Shown here: positions 1,682 through 27,843 of the stretch, one piece after another
Numbering within the stretch: position 1 is the first letter of the stretch
How the letters are laid out: every line of letters begins with the position of its first letter
Origin: Octopus sinensis
Lineage: Eukaryota
Direction of reading: 5' to 3'
Assembly: GCF_006345805.1 (NCBI RefSeq)
Contig: NW_021832897.1
Coordinates: forward strand, 1-29,786
DNA length: 29,786 nt
The notes under the pieces: generated by a model
What the model was told of the DNA's origin: nothing
Seen by the model: the letters and a program-made list of their open reading frames with translations, nothing else
Database searches by the model: none
Position numbers and translations under genes: made by a program

Positions 1682-2297
1682 CTTTTACTCTTACTCTTTT
1701 ACTCTTTTACTTGTTTCAGTCATTTGACTGCGGCCATGCTGGAGCACCGCCTTTAGTCGAGCAAATCGACCCCCAGGGACTTATTCTTTGTAAGCCCAGT
1801 ACTTATTCTATCGGTCTCTTTTGCCGAACCGCTAAGTTACGGGGACGTAAACACACCAGCATCGGTTGTCAAGCAATGCTAGGGGAACAAACACACACAC
1901 ACAAACACACACATACACATATATACATATATATGACAGGCTTCTTTCAGTTTCCGTCTACCAAATCCACTCACAAGGTATTGGTCGGCCCGGGGCTATA
2001 GCAGAAGACACTTGCCCAAGATGCCACGCAGTGGGACTGAACCCGGAACCTATTTCTTTATTACCCACAAGGGGTTAAACACAGAGGGGACAACAAGGAC
2101 AGACATAGGTATTAAGTCGATTACATCGACCCCAGTGCTTAACTGGTACTTAATTTATCGACCCCGAAAGGATGAAAGGCAAAGTCGACCTCGGCGGAAT
2201 TTGAACTCACAACGTAACGCAGACGAAATACCGCTAAGCATTTCGCCCGGCGTGTGGTTGGTTAGCAAGCTACTTACCACACAGCCACTCCTGCGCC
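1682..2297 (-). mobile_element. SINE family A (tRNA-derived head, CORE-like segment, internal TA/TG microsatellite, (AAAGAGT)n tail), interrupted by a SINE-B unit
   Basis: Head GGCGCAGGAGTGGCTGTGTGG (A box) ... GGTTCAGTCCC (B box), then CTTGGGCAAGTGTCTT. Near-identical to the copies at 25690-26467 and 26627-28099. Confidence 0.9.
2051..2251 (-). mobile_element. SINE-B (B2 tail) unit inserted between the A and B boxes of SINE A
   Basis: The SINE A consensus GGAACCATGTGGTTGG is split as GGAACC|...|TGTGGTTGG. The insert matches the B units elsewhere in the window. Confidence 0.9.
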
Positions 2298-2596
2298 TCA
2301 TTGTTCTGATTTAGTTTCATCCTTGCATGTGCGCGGATATGACTTTTCGTCGTACATCCATTGCCATAGAACTTTATAACCTCAAGAAATGAAATGAATA
2401 GTGAGGCTTTTGTACGTCACTGGATTTAAATGATAAAAACTTCTACAATACTTTTACCATTCTCTCGGTAGTCATTGTCAGTTCCTGTGCTAAGCATTAC
2501 AAAATGACTGATACTGTTTTGACTGAAATTTTTATGTCAGAGTATCTTTCTCCCAAAAGAGTTACTTTCGCTATGGCTTTGTCAATAATAACGGGA

Positions 2597-3169
2597 GCTG
2601 GCAGAAACGTTAGCACGCCGGGCAAAAATGCTTAGCGGTATTTCGTCTGCCGTTACGTTCTGAGTTCAAATTCCGCCGAGGTCGACTTTGCCTTTCATCC
2701 TTTTGGGGGTCGATAAATTAAGTACCAGTTGCACAATGGGGTAGATCTAATCGACTCGTCCCCTCCCTGTTGTGTTATATCCAATGTAAGATGAGCTGGC
2801 AGAAACGTTAGCACGCCGGGCGAAATGCTTAGCGGTATTTCGTCTGAGTTCAAGTTCCGCCGAGGTCGACTTTGCCTTTCATCCTTTCGAGGTGGATGAA
2901 TTAAGTGCCAGTTGCCCACTGGGGTCGATATAATCGACTTAATCCGTTTGTCTGTCCTTGTTTGCCCTCTCTGTGTTTAGCCCCTTGTAGGTAGTAAAAA
3001 AATAGGTATTTCGTCTGTCTTTACGTTCTCAGTTCAAATGCCGTCGGGATCGACTTTGCCTTTCATCCTTTCAGGATCGATAAATTAAGTACCAGTTGCG
3101 TATTGGAGTCGATCTAATCGACTGGCCTCTTCCCCCAAAATTTAGAACCTTGTGCGTAGAGTAGGAAAG
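2597..3169 (+). mobile_element. SINE-B composite (3 units) bracketed by one 13-bp TSD
   Basis: A box TGGCAGAAACG, B box GAGTTCAAATTCC. AATAATAACGGGA occurs at 2584-2596 and 3170-3182. Confidence 0.9.
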
Positions 3170-7387: not shown

Positions 7388-8040
7388 GATTTTAAATGTT
7401 GGCACAAGGCCAGCAATATCGGCGGAGGGGTAAAGTCAATTACATCGAGTCCAGTGATCAACTGGTATTTATTTTATCGACCCCGGAAGGATGAAAGGCA
7501 AAGTCGACCTCAGTGGAATTTGGACTTAGAACGTAAATACGGACGAAATGCCGCCAAGCATTTCGCCCGGGGTGCTAACGATTCTTATTTCTTTATTGCC
7601 CACAAGGGGCTAAACATCGAGGGGACAAACAAGAACAGACAAAGGGATTAAGTCGATTACATCGACCCAGTACGTAACTGGTACTTAATTTATCGACCCC
7701 GAAAGGATGAAAGACAAAGTCGACCTCGGCAGAATTTGAACCCAGAACATAACCTTTTCTACTCTAGCCACAAGGCCCGAAATATTTTGAGGAAGGGGCC
7801 CGTCGATTAGATCGACCCCAGTATGCAACTGGTACTTAATTTATCGACCCCGAAAGGATGAAAGGCAAAGTCGATCTCGGCGGAATTTGAACCCAGAAAT
7901 AGGCAGACGAAATACTTATTTCCATTTCATTACTACCTACAAGGGGCTAAACACAGAGGGGACAAACAAGGACAGACAAATGGATTAAGTCGATTTTATC
8001 GACCCTAGTGTGTAACTGGTACTTATTTAATCGACCCCGA
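7388..8040 (-). mobile_element. SINE-B tandem array (4 units, 5' head missing)
   Basis: Repeated ATCGACCCCGAAAGGATGAAAGGCAAAGTCGACCTC cores, with junctions at ~7585, ~7751 and ~7916. Confidence 0.9.
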
Positions 8041-8889: not shown

Positions 8890-9300
8890 TTCTCTTACAT
8901 TCTAGGCACAAGGTCGAAATTTGGGGGAGGGGACGAGTCGATTAGAACTGGTACTTAATTTATCGATCCCGAAAGGATGAAAGGCAAAGTCGACCTCGGC
9001 GGAATTTGAACTCAGAATGTATAGACAGACGAAATACCGCTAAGCATTTCGACCGTGCTAACGTTTCTTATTTCTTTATTGCCCACAAGGGGCTAAACAT
9101 AGAGGAGACAAACAAGGACAGACAAAGGGATTAAGTCGATTACATCGACCCCAGTGCGTAACTGGTACTTAATTTATCAACCCCGAAAGGTTGAAAGGCA
9201 AAGTCGAACTCGGCGGAATTTGAACTCAGAACGTAACGGCAGACGAAATACCGCAAAGTATTTCACCCGGCGTGCTAACGTTTCTGCCAGCTCGCCACCT
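8890..9300 (-). mobile_element. SINE-B dimer
   Basis: Head GGTGGCGAGCTGGCAGAAACG at ~9299, internal junction at 9067/9068. Confidence 0.9.
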
Positions 9301-9499
9301 TTCATCTTACATTGGATATAATACAACTGGTTGTGTTGCATCCTTCAGTGCAGGTGTATGTCATCAGGTAAAAAAGATACCTCGCTCAATATCTTTGGTT
9401 TCGCTTGGTTCGCTTATACGGCATGTTGTTATTGACAGGAGATGGATACAGTTTCCGGGTTATAACCGGTTAATGGATCTACCTATGGTTATTATATCA

Positions 9500-10346: not shown

Positions 10347-10756
10347 AAGGAGACGAGCTGGCAGAATCGTTAGCCCACCGGGCGAAATGCTTAGCAGTAT
10401 TTCGTCTGCCGCTACGTTCTGAGTTCAAATGCCGCCGAGGTCGACTTCACCTTTCATCCTTTCGGAGTCGATAAATTAAGTACCAGTTGCGTACTGGGGT
10501 CGATCTAATCGACTGGCCCCCTCCCCCAAAATTTCCGGCCTTGTGCCTTGAGTAGAAAAGAATCGATAGCACGCCGGGCGAAATGCTTAGCAGCATTTCA
10601 CCCGTCTTTATGTTCTGAGTTCAAATTCCGCTGAGGTTGACTTTGCCTTTCATTCTTTCAGGGTCGATAAATTAAGTACCAGTGAAACATTGGAGTCGAT
10701 GTAATCGACTAGTCCCCTTCCCCAGATTTGCAGGTCTTATGCCTTTAATAGAAAGG
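10347..10756 (+). mobile_element. SINE-B dimer with one degenerate 19-bp TSD
   Basis: ATTATTAAAACTCCTTAAT (10328-10346) versus ATTATTAAAGCTCTTTTAT (10757-10775), 16/19 identical. Internal junction at ~10560. Confidence 0.88.
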
Positions 10757-13450: not shown

Positions 13451-14252
13451 AGAAAGGCGGCGAGCTGGCAGAATCGTTAGCATGCCGGGCGAAATGCTTC
13501 GCAGTATTTCGTCTGCCACTACGTTCTGAGTTCAAATTCCGCTGAGGTCGACTTTGCCTTTCATCCTTTCGGAGTCGATTAAATAAGTACCAGTTACGCA
13601 CTGGCGTCGATACAATCGACTTAATCCGTTTGACTATCCTTGTTTGTCCTCTCTGTGTTTAACCCCTTGTGGGTAGTAAAGAAATATGTATTTCGTCTGC
13701 CGCTACGTTCTGAGTTCAAATTCCGCTGCTGTCGACTTTGCCTTTCATCCTTTCGAGGTCGATAAATTAAGTACCAGATGAATACTGAGATCGATGTAAT
13801 CGACTTAATCCCTTTGGCTGTCCTTGTTTGTACCCTCTGTGTTTAGCCCCTTGTGGGTAGTAAAGAAATAGGTATTTCGTCTGCCGCTACGTTCTGAGTT
13901 CAAATTCCGCCGAGATTGACTTTGCCTTTCATCCTTTCGGGGTCGATAAATTAAGTACCAGTTTTGCAGTGAAGTCGATGTAATCGACTTAATCCGTTTG
14001 TCTGTCCTTGTTTGTCCTCTCTATGTTTAGCCCTTTGTGTTGTGGGCAATAAAGAAATATGAAACGTAAGCATGCCGGGCAAAATGCTTGGCGGCATCTC
14101 GTCAATCCCTATATTCTGAGTTCAAATTCTGCCGTGGTCGAATTTACTTTTTATCCTTTCAGAATAAAATAGTACCATTTGAGCGCTGGAGTCAATGCAA
14201 TCGAATTACTCCCTCCCCTGAAATTGCTGGCATTGTGTCAAAATATGAAACC
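13451..14252 (+). mobile_element. SINE-B tandem array (4 units) with one 14-bp TSD
   Basis: AATATTCTGT(G/A)TAG at 13437-13450 and 14253-14266. Three B2 units precede a much more diverged terminal unit at 14061-14252. Confidence 0.92.
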
Positions 14253-14609
14253 AATATTCTGTATAGCCTGTTATGACAGTTGTCGCCATTAGTGTAGCGA
14301 TGTGGCGGTGTGATGGTGTATAACAGTGTGGGTGTGGCGTATGGTTGGGTTTGTGCGGTGCATGGTAGTGTCGCTGAGATGTATAGGTGTTAGCGTAGTG
14401 TATGCAGCTGTAAGTATGACGCAGAGTAATATTAATTTGATATATGACATAGTAGGGGGCATGGTACCTTTGATGTGGTGTATGATAGTGTTGGCGTGGT
14501 GAGCGTAAACCCTTTAACATCGTGTTAATTTAGAAATAATTTAAAGATATAGTTGGGAACGAAAAGAGAAGCATTAAATATAATATCTTGCAAGATCTAA
14601 ATAGTGATG

Positions 14610-14860
14610 TTAACATCCTTTAATCTTCCACACCAAAGATCTGCGCTTGGAAAGTCTTGCTTCTTTCTTGTTGGCAGACCAGCATCAGTTGTGGCTATAG
14701 AGACCCATGTCTGAGTGACAGCCACGACTGCAGTGACTACGCTTGGAAGAGTTCTCTGCCAGCTTTCTTCTGTTGCTGTTTATCAGCCGATTTTTTATTT
14801 TTCATCGGCGAGCATCAGCCCCGCCTCTCAACTTCCTAAACCCTTGCCTAATTCCAATAA
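14610..14860 (-). mobile_element. Degenerate RTE-clade LINE 3' end
   Basis: The minus strand at 14732-14682 reads CSRGCHSDMGLYSHN*C, matching the RTE C-terminal C..C.S.+GL.SH motif, followed by a short 3' UTR. Confidence 0.7.
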
Positions 14861-14899
14861 TGTTATGTATAAAGGCCATATATTCAAATGACTGGTTTT

Positions 14900-16410
14900 C
14901 AAAGAGCCAAAATAGCTTTATAACTTGTCATGTTTAATAATTATGACCATGCAAATATTAATCGATGTCGACTGAATTTTAGATATTTATTCAGCACATC
15001 TGCAGCTGCACACTTCAAGTTTGCATTTTTTTATACTTGTAAAGTGAATGCTTTTTTTCTGTAGCATTTTATATCAAGACTGCAGACATTCTTTGCAGAA
15101 GTAATCCAAACTAGAATAAACTTGTTGTTTCTTGTCTTTCTCAATCCATTCTTGAATGCAGAGGACGCATATATGGATCATGGACTCATACCCATCATGG
15201 AATCATTAGCTGTTATCCAACTGCTAGCTTGAAATACGCTCCTTTTGATATTTCTTTACAAGTCATCGCTTTTCGGGAATATTCTTTCCATATATGATAG
15301 AACAACTTCATTCGCAGCATATCAATATTGACATCATAATGCAAATTTCAGATCTCAGACAAAACCTCAGACAGACCTCAGACAAACCCCAGACAGACCT
15401 CAGACAAACCTCAGACAGACCTCAGACAAAACCTCAGACAGACCTCAGACAAAACCTTAGACAGACCTCAGACAAACCTCAGACAGACCTCAGACTAAAC
15501 CTCAAACAAACATCAGACAAACCTCAGACAGACCTCAGACAAACCTCAGACAGACCTCAGACAATCCTGAGACAGACCTCAGACAAAACTTCAGACAGGC
15601 CTCAGACAAACCTCAGACAGACCTCAGACAAAACCTCAGACAGACCTCAGACAAACCTCAGACAGACCTCAGACAAACCACATGACAATTCCGTTTAATT
15701 ATGATTAAATATAATATCTAGTGATGGCGGCATTTGTTAATTCTTTGATGAGTGGTAGAATATTGTCCTTCGTCTTGATACAGCATCGTTTGTCCCTTAA
15801 ACTTGAAGGCTGATATGTCTGGATCAGTGAAAACATAATGTCTGGATTAGTGGAAGAGAGCCATTGATTTGCAAGATCAATCCTGAATTTGAGGCAATGT
15901 TATCTAAGATCATTTTGGCTGCTTTTTCAGTTTTGAATGAAATTTGATTTCAGTTTTTTAGTTTGTAGTGATGATGTGGTAGAAAATATTCCGATGTATT
16001 GCTTCAACATCAGTATCTCGTACATATACCATCCCAAGAGATGGATATTTGAAGGTATTAAGATTTACCACAAAATGAATAACAACTTCGTCCAGATTAC
16101 ATTGTTCCATTGGAGTACCATTTCTTGAATTGGGTTTCGTATAAGCAACCTCAATTTCTAACATTATCTTTTTCTTTTTGTTTTTCTTTTTGAAAGTCCC
16201 GAAAGCATCTTTTTGTTACCTGCAGTTGCCAAATAATTATCCTAGTTTCCTGAGACCTTGGTTTTACCAGACACATACTATTGTATACTAGTCCTTCGTT
16301 GCTCATTTGTACCACCTTAGAATGTCGATGTATGGCATTGATTCCAAACAATGTCTTGCCGTTCTTTTCAAATCATACCCAAATCCATACGTAAAACCGT
16401 CCATGAAATA
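14900..16410 (-). mobile_element. Highly decayed L1/Tx1-like ORF2 C-terminal remnant, split by a minisatellite
   Basis: Scattered minus-strand peptides W*NQGLRKLG*LF, FRDFQKE, AYFKLAVG, ITANDSMMGMS and CVLC...ETTSLF occur in the order expected for the L1/Tx1 zf-RVT region. Many stops and frameshifts. Confidence 0.35.
15348..15679. repeat. 11-12-bp minisatellite (CCTCAGACAGA / CCTCAGACAAA[A]), ~30 units
   Basis: Direct reading. The two variants largely alternate. Confidence 0.95.
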
Positions 16411-16420
16411 TTCATCACGT

Positions 16421-16488
<68 letters not shown>

Positions 16489-16612
16489 GGTGGTGGTGGT
16501 GGTGGTGGTGGTGGCGGCAGCAGCAGCAGCAGCGGCAGCAGCGGCAGCAGCGGCAGCAGCGGCAGCAGCGGCAGCAGCGGCAGCAGCGAAAGCAGCAGCG
16601 AAAGCAGCAGCG

Positions 16613-16693
<81 letters not shown>
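16421..16693. repeat. Compound trinucleotide repeat (GTA)n(GTG)n(GCA/GCG)n(GTA)n
   Basis: Direct reading. Confidence 0.95.
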
Positions 16694-16953
16694 AACGAGT
16701 CAGTAAGTGACCGCTTGAATAGCAAATACTTCTCTTCCAAATGGGGTACGAACAAACCGAAAGAATAAATGTAGTATGGGATGTAGTCCGAAAAACTGAC
16801 GCGTCACAGCAGGACCAAAAGTTTGCTCCAGCAGAGCTGACCTGGGCCTAAAGAACAGCAGCTACTACTACTACTACTACTACTACTATTAATGATGAAG
16901 ATTTATTTTCAATCTTAATGTACTTCTGGGTCTACAGCATAATGTTATATTAT

Positions 16954-18807
16954 TTTCTACTATAAGCACAAGGTCCAAAATTTTGGGGGTGGAGGCCACT
17001 CGATAATATCGATCCCAGTATGCAAATGGTATTTAATTAAATCAACCCCGAAAAGATGAAAGGCAAAGTCGACCTCGGCGGCATTTGAACTCAGAAGGTA
17101 AAGACAGACAAAATACCAATTTCTTTACTTCCTACAAGGGGCTAAACATAGAGAGGACAAACAAGGACAGACAAACGGATTAAGTCGATTATATCGACCC
17201 CAGTGCGTAAATGGTACTTAATTTATCGGTTAAACATTTTCGGTATGCAAATTAGTGACTCCCTGCATAGAAAAACTGCTGCATTTGTTGAGTATATATA
17301 GAGTTTATTGAGCGGTTATAAATTTTCGGTATGCAAATTAGGGACTCCCGCATAGAATAAATGCTGCCTTTGTTGAGTATCTATAGAGTTTATAGACGGA
17401 TTAAAAAATGTTGTTATGCAAATTAGGGACTCCTTCATAGAATAACTGCTGCGTTTGTTGAGTATATATAGATTTTATAGAGGGGTTAAACATTTTCGGT
17501 ATGCAAATTAGAGACTCCATCGTAGAATCACTGCTGCATTTGTTGAGTATATATAGAGTTTATAGAGGGGTTAAACATTTTTCGCATGCAAATTAGGGAC
17601 TCATTCATAGAATAACTGCTGCATTTGTTGAGTTTATAGAGGGGTTAAAAATGTTGGTATGCAAATTAGGGACTCCTTCCTAGAAAAACTGCTGTATTTG
17701 TTGAGTATATATCGAGTTAATAGAGCGGTTACACATTTTCTGTATGCAAATTAGTGACTCCCTGCATAGAATAAACGCTGTATTTGTTGAGTATATACAG
17801 AGTTTATAGAGCGTTTAAACATTTTTGGTATTCAAATTATGGACTCCTTCATAGAATAACTGCTGCATTTGTTGAGTATTTAAACAGTTTATAAAGTGTT
17901 AAACATTTTCAGTACGCATCCCGAAAGGATAAAAGCCAAAGTCGACCTCGGCGGAATTTGAACTCTGAACGTGACGGCAGACGAAATACCGCTAAGCATT
18001 TCGCCCGGCGTGCTAACGTTTCTTATTTCTTTGTTGCCCACAAGGGGTTAAATATAGGGGGGACAAACAAGAACAGACAAAGGGATTAAGTCGATTATAT
18101 CGACCCCAGTGCTTAACTGGTACTTAATTTATCGACCCCGAAATGATAAAAGGCAATGTCGACCTCAGCGGAATTTGAACTCAGGACGTAAAAACAGACG
18201 AAATACCTATTTCTTTACTACCCACAAAGGGCTTGACACAGAGAAGACAAACAAGGACAGACAAACGGATTAAGTTGATTATATCGACCCCAGTGCGTAA
18301 CTGGTACTTATTTAATCGACCTTGAAAGGATGAAAGGCAAAGTCGACCTCGGCGGAATTTGAACTCAAAACGTAAAAACAGACGAAATACCTATTTCTTT
18401 ATTACCCACAAGGGACTAAAGACAGAGGGACAAACAAGGACTAACAAACGGATTAAGTTGATTATATCGATCCTTGTGCATAACTGGTACTTATTTAATC
18501 GACCCCGAAAGGATGAAAGGCAAAGTCGACCTCGGCGGAATTTGAACTCAGAACGTAAAAACAGACGAAATACCTATTTCTTTATTACCCACAAGGGACT
18601 AAAGGCAGGGGGGACAAACAAGGACTGACAAACGGATTAAGTCGATTATATCGACCCTTGTGCATAACTAGTACTTATTTAATCGACCCTGAAAGGATGA
18701 AAGGCAAAGTCGACCTCGGCGGAATTTGAACTCAGAACGTAGCGGCAGACGAAATACCGCTAACCATTTCGCCCGGCGTGCTAACGTTTCTGCCAGCTCG
18801 CCGCCTT
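16954..18807 (-). mobile_element. SINE-B tandem array (6 units) with one 18-bp TSD, containing a satellite insertion
   Basis: AGCAT(A/G)ATGTTATATTAT at 16936-16953 and 18808-18825. Junctions at ~17117, 18023, 18207, 18391 and 18574. Confidence 0.92.
17229..17917. repeat. ~85-bp tandem repeat (8 units plus a partial ninth), each full unit with an octamer motif
   Basis: ATGCAAAT at 17245, 17331, 17416, 17501, 17586, 17659 and 17744, and ATTCAAAT at 17830. Periods are 86, 85, 85, 85, 73, 85 and 86. Confidence 0.95.
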
Positions 18808-19179
18808 AGCATGATGTTATATTATCGCGTGATCTCGTTTAATACGTAAGTTTGTATCCACGTGTGATTTCAGACATACTTTAATAGGTAGTTTTATTTC
18901 TCTCTTTGTTACATTTATACGTAGTTTGTGTTCTTGTGTGATCTCGTTATACCGTTGGAACGGAGTTTATGTTCACGTGTAATCTCGTTAATGTATTTTA
19001 TACGGTTTAATTGCAGTCAATTTACAACTGAAGACGTGTACCAGGCTCAGCGATGTGCGGGAGCTCTATCACGCACAGAGCTGGCGCCTGCTCTGTTTAC
19101 ACCACGGAAGTAGAATTTAAAAGATCAATAACACCTCCACTGTTTTTTTTTTCTTGTGCCCTGAAACAGCAGATGTCAT

Positions 19180-19217
<38 letters not shown>

Positions 19218-20630: not shown

Positions 20631-20883
20631 TGGGTTGGTGCATAATTATTGCGGCTTTTTTTCAACAAATTTTTTTTCAACAAAAATAACATGTAACAAA
20701 AACATCTTTAAATGATTATTCCGGAGCATATTCACCATCTACTTCAATTACTGCTTCCTATTTGCTTGGCAGACAGTCAGACCGTCAATTTAAAGATGCT
20801 TTTGTTAAATATTGTTATTGTTTTTGTTGAATAAACATTTGTTGGGGGAGAAAAAAAGCCGCAATAATTATACACCAAACCAA
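20630..20883 (-). mobile_element. Internally deleted mariner element (MITE-like)
   Basis: TIRs TTGGGTTGGTGCATAATTATTGCGGCTTTTT / AAAAAGCCGCAATAATTATACACCAAACCAA with a TA TSD at 20628-29 and 20884-85. The minus strand at 20772-20716 encodes LPSK*EAVIEVDGEYAPE*, the mariner transposase C-terminus. Confidence 0.9.
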
Positions 20884-20885
20884 TA

Positions 20886-21265
20886 CAAAAAAAAATATTG
20901 GTGGAATTTTAAAATTAAAACAGCCACAAAGTTAAAGCACAACCGGCCAGATATTATTGTTGTGTGGGGCCTTAAGGAAAAGATATGTTCTGTTGTGGAA
21001 ATCAGCTGTCCCCTGGACACGAAAGTAGTTAGAAAAATACTAGAGAATGAGGACATCTTTGAACAATTGATAAGTTTGCAAATCAAGTACCCAAGATACA
21101 TTTTCAGCATCATACTTGGAGCAACAGGATATATACCGACCCGTCTGGAGCAAAGTATGACTGAACTTGGGACCTTGGGTAGAGAATGTAGATCCTTAAT
21201 TCATATGCTACAAATGATCTAGGATTATAAAACTCTGTAAGGTGTTCTTAAAATTTAAAGGATGA
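20886..21265 (+). mobile_element. R4/Dong-type LINE fragment covering the restriction-like endonuclease domain
   Basis: YWWNFKIKTATKLKHNRPDIIVVW...CSVVEISCPLD...KYPRY..IILGATG... then, frameshifted, IIKLCKVFLKFKG*. Contains the RPD...E catalytic motif of PD-(D/E)xK RLE domains. Confidence 0.88.
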
Positions 21266-24029: not shown

Positions 24030-24805
24030 AATTTTAAGCTTTGACACAAAGTCAGCAATTTGGGGGGGGGGAGCATGGGACAGTAGATTATATCGGCCCA
24101 GGTATTTGGTTGGAACTTTATTTCGTCAACCCTGTATGAATGGTGAAGTTCACCTTGACGAGGTGTCAAAGCATTTTTTTTCCCCGACATCAACGATTCT
24201 ACCCGCTCGCCGCCTTAATAATCATTTCTACTCAAGGCACAAGGCCTGAAATTTGGAGAAGCGGGGGCTAGTCGATTACATCAACCCTAGTATTCCACTG
24301 GTACTTAACTTATCTACCCCGCGAGGATGAAAGGCAAAGTCGACCTCAGCAGTATTTGAACTCAGAACGTAGCGGTAGACGAAATACCTATTTCTTTACT
24401 ACCCACAAGGGGCTAAACACAGAGATGATAAACAAGCACAGACAAACGGATTAAGTCGATTATATCGACCCCAGTGCATAACTGGTACTTATTTAATCGA
24501 CCCCGAAAGGATGAAAGGCAAAGTCGACCTCGGCGGAATTTGAACTCAGAACGTAACGGCAAACGAAATACCTATTTCTTTACTACTCACAAGGGACTAA
24601 ACACAGAGGAGACAAACAAGGACAGACAGATGGATTAAGTCGTTTATATCGACCCCAGTGCATAACTGGTACTTATTTAATCGACCCCGAAAGGATGAAA
24701 GGCAAAGTCGACCTCGGCGGAATTTGAACTCAGAACGTAACGGCAGACGAAATACCGCAAAGCATTTCGCCCGGCGTGCTAACGTTTTTGCCAGCTCGCC
24801 GCCTT
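24030..24805 (-). mobile_element. SINE-B cluster: old copy (24030-24215) abutting a 3-unit array (24222-24805)
   Basis: Heads GGCGGCGAGC at ~24214 and ~24803, junctions at 24388 and 24572. Confidence 0.9.
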
Positions 24806-26845: not shown

Positions 26846-27843
26846 CACACACACTCGCAGGCGCGCGCACACACGCGCTTGCGCCGGTTCGCGCACGCAT
26901 ACGCGCATGCATGCACCTCGCTCTTGGACCCGACGAGACCTCCCGCTCGTTTCTGGGGCCGTCGCCTGTCGTTGGGTTCTCCCACGCCCGTCTCCGCGGG
27001 ACCACTCTTCCATCTTCCCCTCAGCTGGAGTCCTTTTTCCTTATAACCCCCCCCTTTTTTTGTTACACACGCGCGCACACATACATACACCCACTCACAC
27101 ACACACATTTGCTTAAATATATACATTACTCTTACACACACTTCAAATCTACTCGCCATACATACAACTACGACACTGGACACACACACACTACTACTCA
27201 ACACACACGCTGGCACGTTACATACGCCCCCACCCCTCCCCTCCCTCCCTTCCTCCTTTCTTCATTTTTTTTTTTTTTACTACTGACCACTGTCTGTTAT
27301 GCCTACTACTGTTCGCCCTACCTCACACGCCTACACACAGACGCACACACTAACATATACATATTTTTTTTTTTTTTACTACTGACCACTGTCTGTTATG
27401 CCTACTACTGTTCGCCCTACCTCACACGCCTACACACAGACGCACACACTAACATATACATATATTTTTTGTTTTTTTTATCTCGCCTCACACACATATA
27501 CACACACGCACACGCACACACTCACACATACACACACATCTGTTGCGTTACCAACCCTGTCTCCACTCTTTTGGCTTTAAAAACCTACTTTGCTCTTGTT
27601 ATCGTAAAATTCCGCCTTTCACCATGTGTACTTCGTAAACACCAGTCGTTTTTTTTTTTCTCCCTCTTGTTGCCCACCTTGGGATCTTTCTTTCCTCTCT
27701 CTTCCTTCTTTATGTTTCCGACGAAGAGCTCCGCTCGAAACGTCATACCTTCCTGCTTCCATCTTTCCTGAGCGCCTATTAATAATAATACTGTAATTGT
27801 TCCACGTGTTGTTGTTTTTTCTGTTTTCCCGTTTGGATTAAAA
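26842..27843 (+). mobile_element. Non-autonomous Penelope-like element (CpG-rich 5' part, CA-rich middle with a ~100-bp tandem duplication, hammerhead-bearing 3' end)
   Basis: Bounded by (TA)n on both sides inside SINE A. Duplication at ~27264-27470. The 3' part is homologous to 1297-1510. Confidence 0.65.
27714..27748 (+). ncRNA. Minimal type I hammerhead ribozyme motif (U4C variant)
   Basis: GUUU-CCGACGA-A-GAGC(UCC)GCUC-GAAA-C-GUC-AUAC, with palindromic ACGU stem III and a GUC cleavage triplet. Confidence 0.62.

Follow-up and report, generated by a model that had tools for sequence, protein, structure and literature searches.

The closest counterpart of the locus studied here has been described in the Drosophila simulans clade, in which the Rsp-like satellite was inserted into another repeat, the 1.688 clusters, through microhomology (Sproul et al. 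2020, PMC7403614). In both cases a rarer satellite lies as a short array inside a far commoner, unrelated repeat without the hallmarks of a transposon, and in both the junctions have microhomology and little or no host sequence was lost. According to the cited sections of that paper, the Rsp-like microhomology is direct and 4-7 bp long and its junction types recur at many loci, whereas the block described below represents one locus, has direct microhomology of 1-2 bp and a longer match that is inverted, and is hosted by a SINE multimer. The same sections propose re-integration of satellite circles (eccDNA), on which satellites are abundant, for Rsp-like, and give as its signature that the first and last partial monomers sum to one monomer (PMC7403614).

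Snap-back SD-MMEJ (Khodaverdian et al. 2017, PMC5728401) is a further point of comparison, since this type of repair leaves inverted repeats at the junctions. The likeness would consist in a repair junction that lies within a new inverted repeat; the difference is that the events in the cited part of that paper are small indels at engineered Drosophila breaks, whereas here the inserted piece is foreign and 689 bp long and the palindrome, in the letters of today, is partial. The satellite "library", as presented in the cited part of PMC12692304, is similar in having short, heterogeneous, low-copy arrays scattered outside long blocks; in the material compared here, neither a long home array nor a carrier Helitron came to light. 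For the O. vulgaris assembly, the section cited reports 11.6% SINEs with a burst at a Jukes-Cantor distance of 0.065, and 3.12% satellites in 80 families (PMC13282606). In the literature searched, we found neither a description of the monomer reported here nor any satellite of this genome described at the monomer level; the O. vulgaris repeat library, which lay outside the search, may already name the family.

In the present study, we analyzed a window of 29,786 bp from Octopus sinensis (contig NW_021832897.1, positions 1 to 29,786). The original prediction, made from the letters of this window, was that an octamer-rich satellite block had been inserted into a SINE. We regard the block as a case of ordinary satellite spread. 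It is an 8.2-unit piece of a dispersed 85-bp tandem family, likely from a mixed array elsewhere, and end joining guided by microhomology likely placed it in a double-strand break. It would be a well-preserved example of a low-copy satellite seeding a new short array, and it could serve as a presence/absence marker.

Materials and comparisons

For comparison with other sequence data, 24 public runs were listed, 20 of which had part of the window, and the best four (X1-X4) were compared, all as contigs. The best runs contain 0.63 and 0.56 of the sampled words of the window. X1, X2, and X3 come from two studies under three organism labels; the assembly itself may derive from one of these runs. 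Divergence and conservation figures are taken from the final realignment of the units, unless the first, rougher alignment is named. Promoter boxes were assigned by the A and B box consensus.

The satellite block

The predicted 85-bp satellite at 17229-17917 is real. TRF gave a period of 85 with 8.3 copies over 17227-17918 (score 881), and this head-to-tail arrangement of 85-bp monomers is that of a satellite. After realignment, the inserted fragment (17229..17917, plus strand, 689 bp, 34% GC) consists of eight units of 74-86 bp, which start at 17229, 17315, 17400, 17485, 17570, 17644, 17728, and 17814, and a partial ninth unit of 20 bp (17898-17917). The units are 80-92% alike in pairwise comparison, with a mean of 85.6%, and 57 of 687 letters (8.3%) deviate from the unit majority. 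Monomer columns 1-16 and 64-85 are the most variable, and unit 5 carries a 12-bp deletion. When the block was compared with the rest of the 29,786-bp window by BLAST, just two hits of 21-26 bp were obtained (E 0.72).

Variants shared between distant units had been taken as a hint of higher-order structure. The variants themselves are present: the 13-mer common to units 1 and 7 was located at 17254 and 17753, and AAAAATGTTG, common to units 3 and 6, at 17404 and 17647. As AAAATGTT in the latter variant and the majority AACATTTT are reverse complements of each other, the variant may be a single micro-inversion, not several changes. The data do not establish a higher-order structure. Of three periods put to the permutation test, period 3 gave p = 0.05 and periods 2 and 4 gave p = 1.0, and the matches that a trimer predicts fail: unit 4 does not have the variant of units 1 and 7, and the partial ninth unit does not have that of units 3 and 6.

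Scans with the monomer pattern yielded no match in metagenome contigs (stricter pattern), in viral contigs (two scans), or in prokaryote genomes. A looser pattern gave six metagenome loci (best E 0.039), which we rejected as chance matches because each was single and isolated, with no tandem structure.

The host SINE multimer

The host is a tRNA-SINE multimer (16950..18807, minus strand), in which the head has an A box at 18795 and a B box at 18733, six cores follow at spacings of 183-217 bp, a run of five Ts (T5) lies at 18561, and the tail is near 16950. These boxes and the high copy number are those of a tRNA-derived SINE; the summed contig depth on SINE cores is of the order of 10^7, compared with about 40-70 for single loci. 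On one side of the block lies the downstream part of the multimer, delimited by core matches and ending at the interrupted core (17040..17228, minus strand), and on the other the upstream half of the interrupted unit (17918..18023, minus strand), with a B box that starts at 17965, an A-box remnant without its 5' bases at 18023, and a T4 run at 17934. The host had been called a young SINE. It is instead a unit of a six-core multimer with about 5-7% divergence: the 22 intact cores, out of 24 core hits in the window, are off their majority at 85 of 1582 letters (5.4%), and the host core at 5 of 72, well above the 2% that the cited part of PMC13282606 sets as the limit for recently active elements.

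SINE multimers are found in the window at 2051-3155, 7426-8040, 8905-9305, 10347-10729, 13452-14214, 16950-18807, and 24236-24805. The element is nearly always multimeric, with one head, two to six internal units of ~184 or 214 bp that each have a B box, and a tail. The dominant SINE of the window presumably resembles an Octopus family, for which OR1/OR2 and MetaSINE are the candidate names in the literature. The multimers may form a genome-wide SINE-derived tandem family like the squamate sSat (Vassetzky et al. 2023, PMC10702118). Judging from the cited part of that paper, the likeness is that an internal SINE part is repeated in tandem between SINE ends, in ~184-bp units; the differences are that the multimers here have only 2-6 cores and that the 85-bp insert is unrelated to the host SINE. 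The SINE body (9125-9235 and 18085-18190, minus strand) is predicted to fold into three small consecutive hairpins, with a folding z of about -1.5, which is not significant, and the insertion point falls in the 3' arm of the first of them.

Insertion junctions

The SINE ends at 17228 and picks up in register at the next base, 17918, and the identical letters run uninterrupted at 8957-8978; removal of the block thus restores a SINE variant present elsewhere in the window, as had been predicted. The further statement that the block has no target-site duplication (TSD), terminal inverted repeat (TIR), or tail was confirmed by the list of inverted pairs and by comparison of the junction letters with the intact SINE variant. 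Of 49 inverted pairs, the 25 longest include no TIR at the block, the block has no simple-repeat or poly(A) tail, and there is no TSD beyond 2-3 bases that are already in the intact variant. The block has neither the TIR and TSD of a DNA transposon or MITE nor the TSD and simple-repeat or poly(A) tail of a retroposed insert.

The description of the insertion as clean is correct as regards the in-register resumption of the SINE, but it applies at the right side only if the host already carried T at 17919. This letter is C in 20 and T in 2 of the 22 intact cores, and the consensus of the contigs with a loose end at 17228 also has C. As T is the minority state, a small change at the junction is possible.

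Neither a junction-bridging contig (among the 32 contig pieces listed, 723,198 more lying outside the list) nor the direct joint of 17228 to 17918 (among 15 listed, 1,714 more lying outside the list) was found; support for the junctions thus comes from the assembly and from the in-register argument. Judged by all the internal evidence, the insertion is real.

At the left junction (17227..17229, plus strand), CG is common to the SINE end and to the family-majority letters before a unit start, as given by the variants 17483 G>C and 17568 G>C. This microhomology is 2 bp, and a length of at least 2 bp is reached in 2 of 170 options of phase and orientation. The right junction (17907..17926, plus strand) has one shared A and marks the midpoint of a near-palindrome that the unit end forms with the SINE flank (inverted pair I24). 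With the majority letters of the unit end, 9 of 10 positions pair with the observed SINE flank, which is the single best of the 170 options; the palindrome was tested after it had been noticed, and this figure requires that the two transitions by which the last 20 bp of the block differ from the majority are later mutations. The majority SINE flank gives 8 of 10 pairs, again more than any other of the 170 options. Nine pairs are reached at 0.08%, and eight at 1.0%, of all SINE positions. With the letters of today the junction has 7 of 10 pairs, matched by 10 of 170 options. The wider similarity between SINE and monomer has a score of 37, below the shuffle median of 41. The inverted match at the right junction appears to be a real but modest lead.

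The family in public contigs

The interior of the array was recovered in public contigs, without a difference at 17609-17811 in X1 and at 17586-17811 in X2 and with one difference at 17546-17797 in X3, and a contig of X2 matches the left flank (16904-17037) with no differences. Family relatives that are 85-90% alike cover every unit in all four runs compared (among the pieces listed), which indicates that the 85-bp family resides elsewhere in the genome too. In the 13 inner bins, contig depth adds up to 5-1,679 times the depth of a single-locus contig, or about 1,200-2,800 monomer equivalents, which is not a copy number; for X1 and X4, these sums draw on part of the data on the block. The depth per unit differs several-fold between runs, as is expected of arrays that expand and contract, and some units have an unevenly high depth, no more than a hint of a possible long homogeneous home array.

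Of the 40 variant rows listed (of 140 overall), 20 fall in the block; 16 of these restore the majority letter of the array, three have letters of other array units, and one has a third letter. Alleles common to other copies include T at column 53 (units 6 and 7) and C at column 84 (units 1, 6, and 7). Since letters confined here to a minority of the units occur in other copies, these alleles are family-wide and the family has subtypes; at least part of the diversity of the array therefore predates the insertion, and the shared alleles favour a mixed source for the copied piece. The prediction that a segment of an array was captured from elsewhere agrees with these data, as the family has many copies and letters in the minority here are the majority in other copies. 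The amount of divergence alone does not prove that the array arrived already diversified, because 8.3% in the array and 7 of 125 (5.6%) in the host halves do not differ significantly (Fisher p = 0.37). Record 31 of X4 (94% over 132 bp) was considered as an orthologous copy and was rejected, as it is indistinguishable from a consensus-like family member. The X4 flank at 16700-16848 has eight differences and one gap in 149 bp, despite carrying the organism label of X1.

The octamer and the regulatory reading

The octamer belongs to an 11-mer at unit columns 17-27 (17245..17840, plus strand), which is intact at 17245, 17331, 17416, 17501, 17586, 17659, and 17744 and changed at 17830. As originally stated, ATGCAAATTAG is intact in seven of the eight units; it has two changes in unit 8, where other family copies have the intact letters (17832 T>G and 17840 T>G). 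The octamers had been described as regularly spaced, and the actual spacings are 86, 85, 85, 85, 73, 85, and 86 bp. A second conserved box, TTTGTTGAGT, at unit columns 55-64 (17284..17877, plus strand), is present in all eight full units.

The conservation of individual columns does not single out the octamer. It has one change in 64 cells of the eight full units, and 9 of 85 windows of the same length are equally good; the permutation p is 0.064 if the octamer is named beforehand, 0.94 if it is picked as the best window, and 0.14 with the partial ninth unit, which has one further change. The box TTTGTTGAGT, which contains no octamer, is kept at least as well, with no changes (p = 0.005 named beforehand, 0.19 as the best window). 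In the first, rougher alignment, the octamer had 1 change in 64 cells against 61 in 603 elsewhere (Fisher p = 0.02), and on this basis a slight constraint on it is possible.

Ten octamers were observed in the window against 2.2 expected. Seven of them belong to repeated copies of a single monomer, and the remaining three are at the chance level. A shuffled monomer contains the octamer 0.6% of the time; given how many repeat families and known motifs there are, its presence in a monomer is unremarkable. The repetition of the octamer follows from that of the monomer. The motif is likely a part of the repeat unit and not a regulatory device, and the inserted block is likely inert.

The distal sequence element of snRNA genes is an octamer that lies ~200-250 bp upstream of a small RNA gene driven by a PSE. 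Octamers are used by type-3 snRNA promoters and not by the A/B-box type found in tRNA-SINEs. The octamers of the block have no such gene to serve: no snRNA or other Rfam family reached the gathering score in the whole window, and no tRNA gene was found in it with ARAGORN. The sole sub-threshold Rfam match in 15700-19200, isrG, was rejected, having 25.9 bits against a cut-off of 100 and lying on a microsatellite. In the SINE cluster, an A and a B box occur together in the head unit alone. This unit lies ~880 bp from the block and points towards it, but the T5 run at 18561, 640 bp before the block, and five more runs of T4-T5 come in between. The proposal of a POU-site cluster among Pol III promoters was therefore not upheld, with no snRNA gene, a single complete promoter, and T4-T5 runs ahead of the block. 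The regulatory reading fared no better, as the octamer is kept no better than TTTGTTGAGT and nothing beyond the presence of the motif speaks for it. The 24 listed runs include no RNA run containing window sequence.

Origin of the block

We propose that a double-strand break arose in the SINE core and that a satellite piece, obtained by copying or breakage of a mixed array at another site, would have been joined on the left side through the 2-bp microhomology. On the right side, the satellite end may have folded back (snap-back), so that a short inverted copy could anneal to the SINE flank; such a copy would supply the T at 17919 and so account for the minority state at this position. Point changes and the 12-bp slippage deletion in unit 5 would have followed later. 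Break repair and eccDNA had both been named as the means of delivery: the junctions fit break repair, and the end signature of eccDNA is absent, although a trimmed circle is possible as the donor within this explanation.

Among the alternatives, an unlikely one is that the repeat forms the array inside a non-autonomous Helitron/Helentron or another DNA transposon, the block being a truncated transposition product without its ends. Helitrons and Helentrons have a 5' TC, a 3' CTRR with a hairpin, and an AT target, or subterminal inverted repeats. Helitrons leave no TSD, and its absence here fits their behaviour. The two better-kept boxes in each monomer could be transposase sites, contigs stop near the unit start (records 11, 12, 14, 16, 17, 23, 28, and 31 among the pieces listed), and oyster Helitrons often carry short satellite arrays, according to the cited part of PMC12692304. 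A Helitron-borne origin of the family is conceivable, but the block itself is repeat throughout. No TC...CTRR is present on either strand, the ends being GT...GC on the plus and GC...AC on the minus strand; the target is G|A, not AT; there is no terminal hairpin or TIR; and the monomer folds worse than its shuffles (z +1.1 to +1.65 for the three monomer strands folded). The contig stops are expected from the high variability of columns 1-16 and 64-85, with which they coincide, and element ends inferred from these stops were rejected, as the unmatched letters may be more satellite. A piggyBac-like element was also rejected, since TTAA occurs within the monomer but the flanks have no TTAA duplication. 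A Pfam search of 28 chosen frames of at least 55 aa (low-complexity frames left out) gave one sub-threshold hit, and thus neither a transposase nor any gene close to the block.

Insertion of one or two monomers followed by expansion in place through unequal exchange, by which the diversity and the shared variants would be local, is improbable. The statistically similar divergence of array and host (p = 0.37) would agree with it, and the host, itself a tandem multimer, indicates a locus that duplicates readily. Yet adjacent units are no more alike than distant ones (0.855 at lag 1, 0.872 at lag 3, and 0.858 at lag 6), and the minority variants are found again in other family copies. We consider it very improbable that a satellite circle was cut once and re-integrated whole; this would likewise leave no TSD, but the block starts at column 1 and ends at column 20, so that its ends overlap by 20 bp instead of summing to one monomer. 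An assembly error at the junction is scarcely credible. It could be suspected from the lack of a bridging contig among the pieces listed and from the incomplete coverage of the sampled words by the best runs (0.63 and 0.56), but resumption of the SINE at the very next base is rare for a random mis-join, and the contigs of X1, X2, and X3 have the array interior (17546-17811) with 0-1 differences, that of X2 also having the left flank. Template switching of a reverse transcriptase, which would need two switches and an exact return, was given little weight.

Joining of a satellite fragment at a break could have a wider bearing. The break site of the SINE and the octamer region of the satellite, inverted, are alike in 18 of 24 columns. 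It is highly doubtful, but conceivable, that the break site steers repair as an inverted look-alike; every SINE core, of which there are hundreds of thousands, would then be a landing pad, and the pair of SINE and satellite would scatter POU-site clusters without an enzyme, with both boxes kept by protein binding. The spread of the satellite would be tied to regulatory rewiring if the same SINE position were hit in the same unit phase across the genome, or if the arrays were occupied by POU factors.

Surroundings of the block

The window is microsatellite-rich animal DNA. A compound trinucleotide run (GTA, GTG, GCA/GCG, and AGT) at 16421-16693, 540 bp left of the block, is the origin of the spurious isrG match. 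Further upstream, a minisatellite at 15349-15688 has periods of 11, 22, and 45 bp, of which the higher-order one is clear (45 bp x 7.3, 91% matches), and a lone octamer lies at 15339, 10 bp upstream of it. The sequence around this minisatellite (14520-16420) is non-repetitive and riddled with stops, and may be a decayed transposon; the frames tried gave no Pfam hit above the cut-off. On the opposite flank of the block, a frame of 137 aa at 20809-21222 (plus strand) has an RPD-like motif and no Pfam hit, and we take it to resemble the restriction-like endonuclease end of an R2-group LINE. A 99-bp tandem duplication with 98% matches and a T run at its start lies at 27264-27478.
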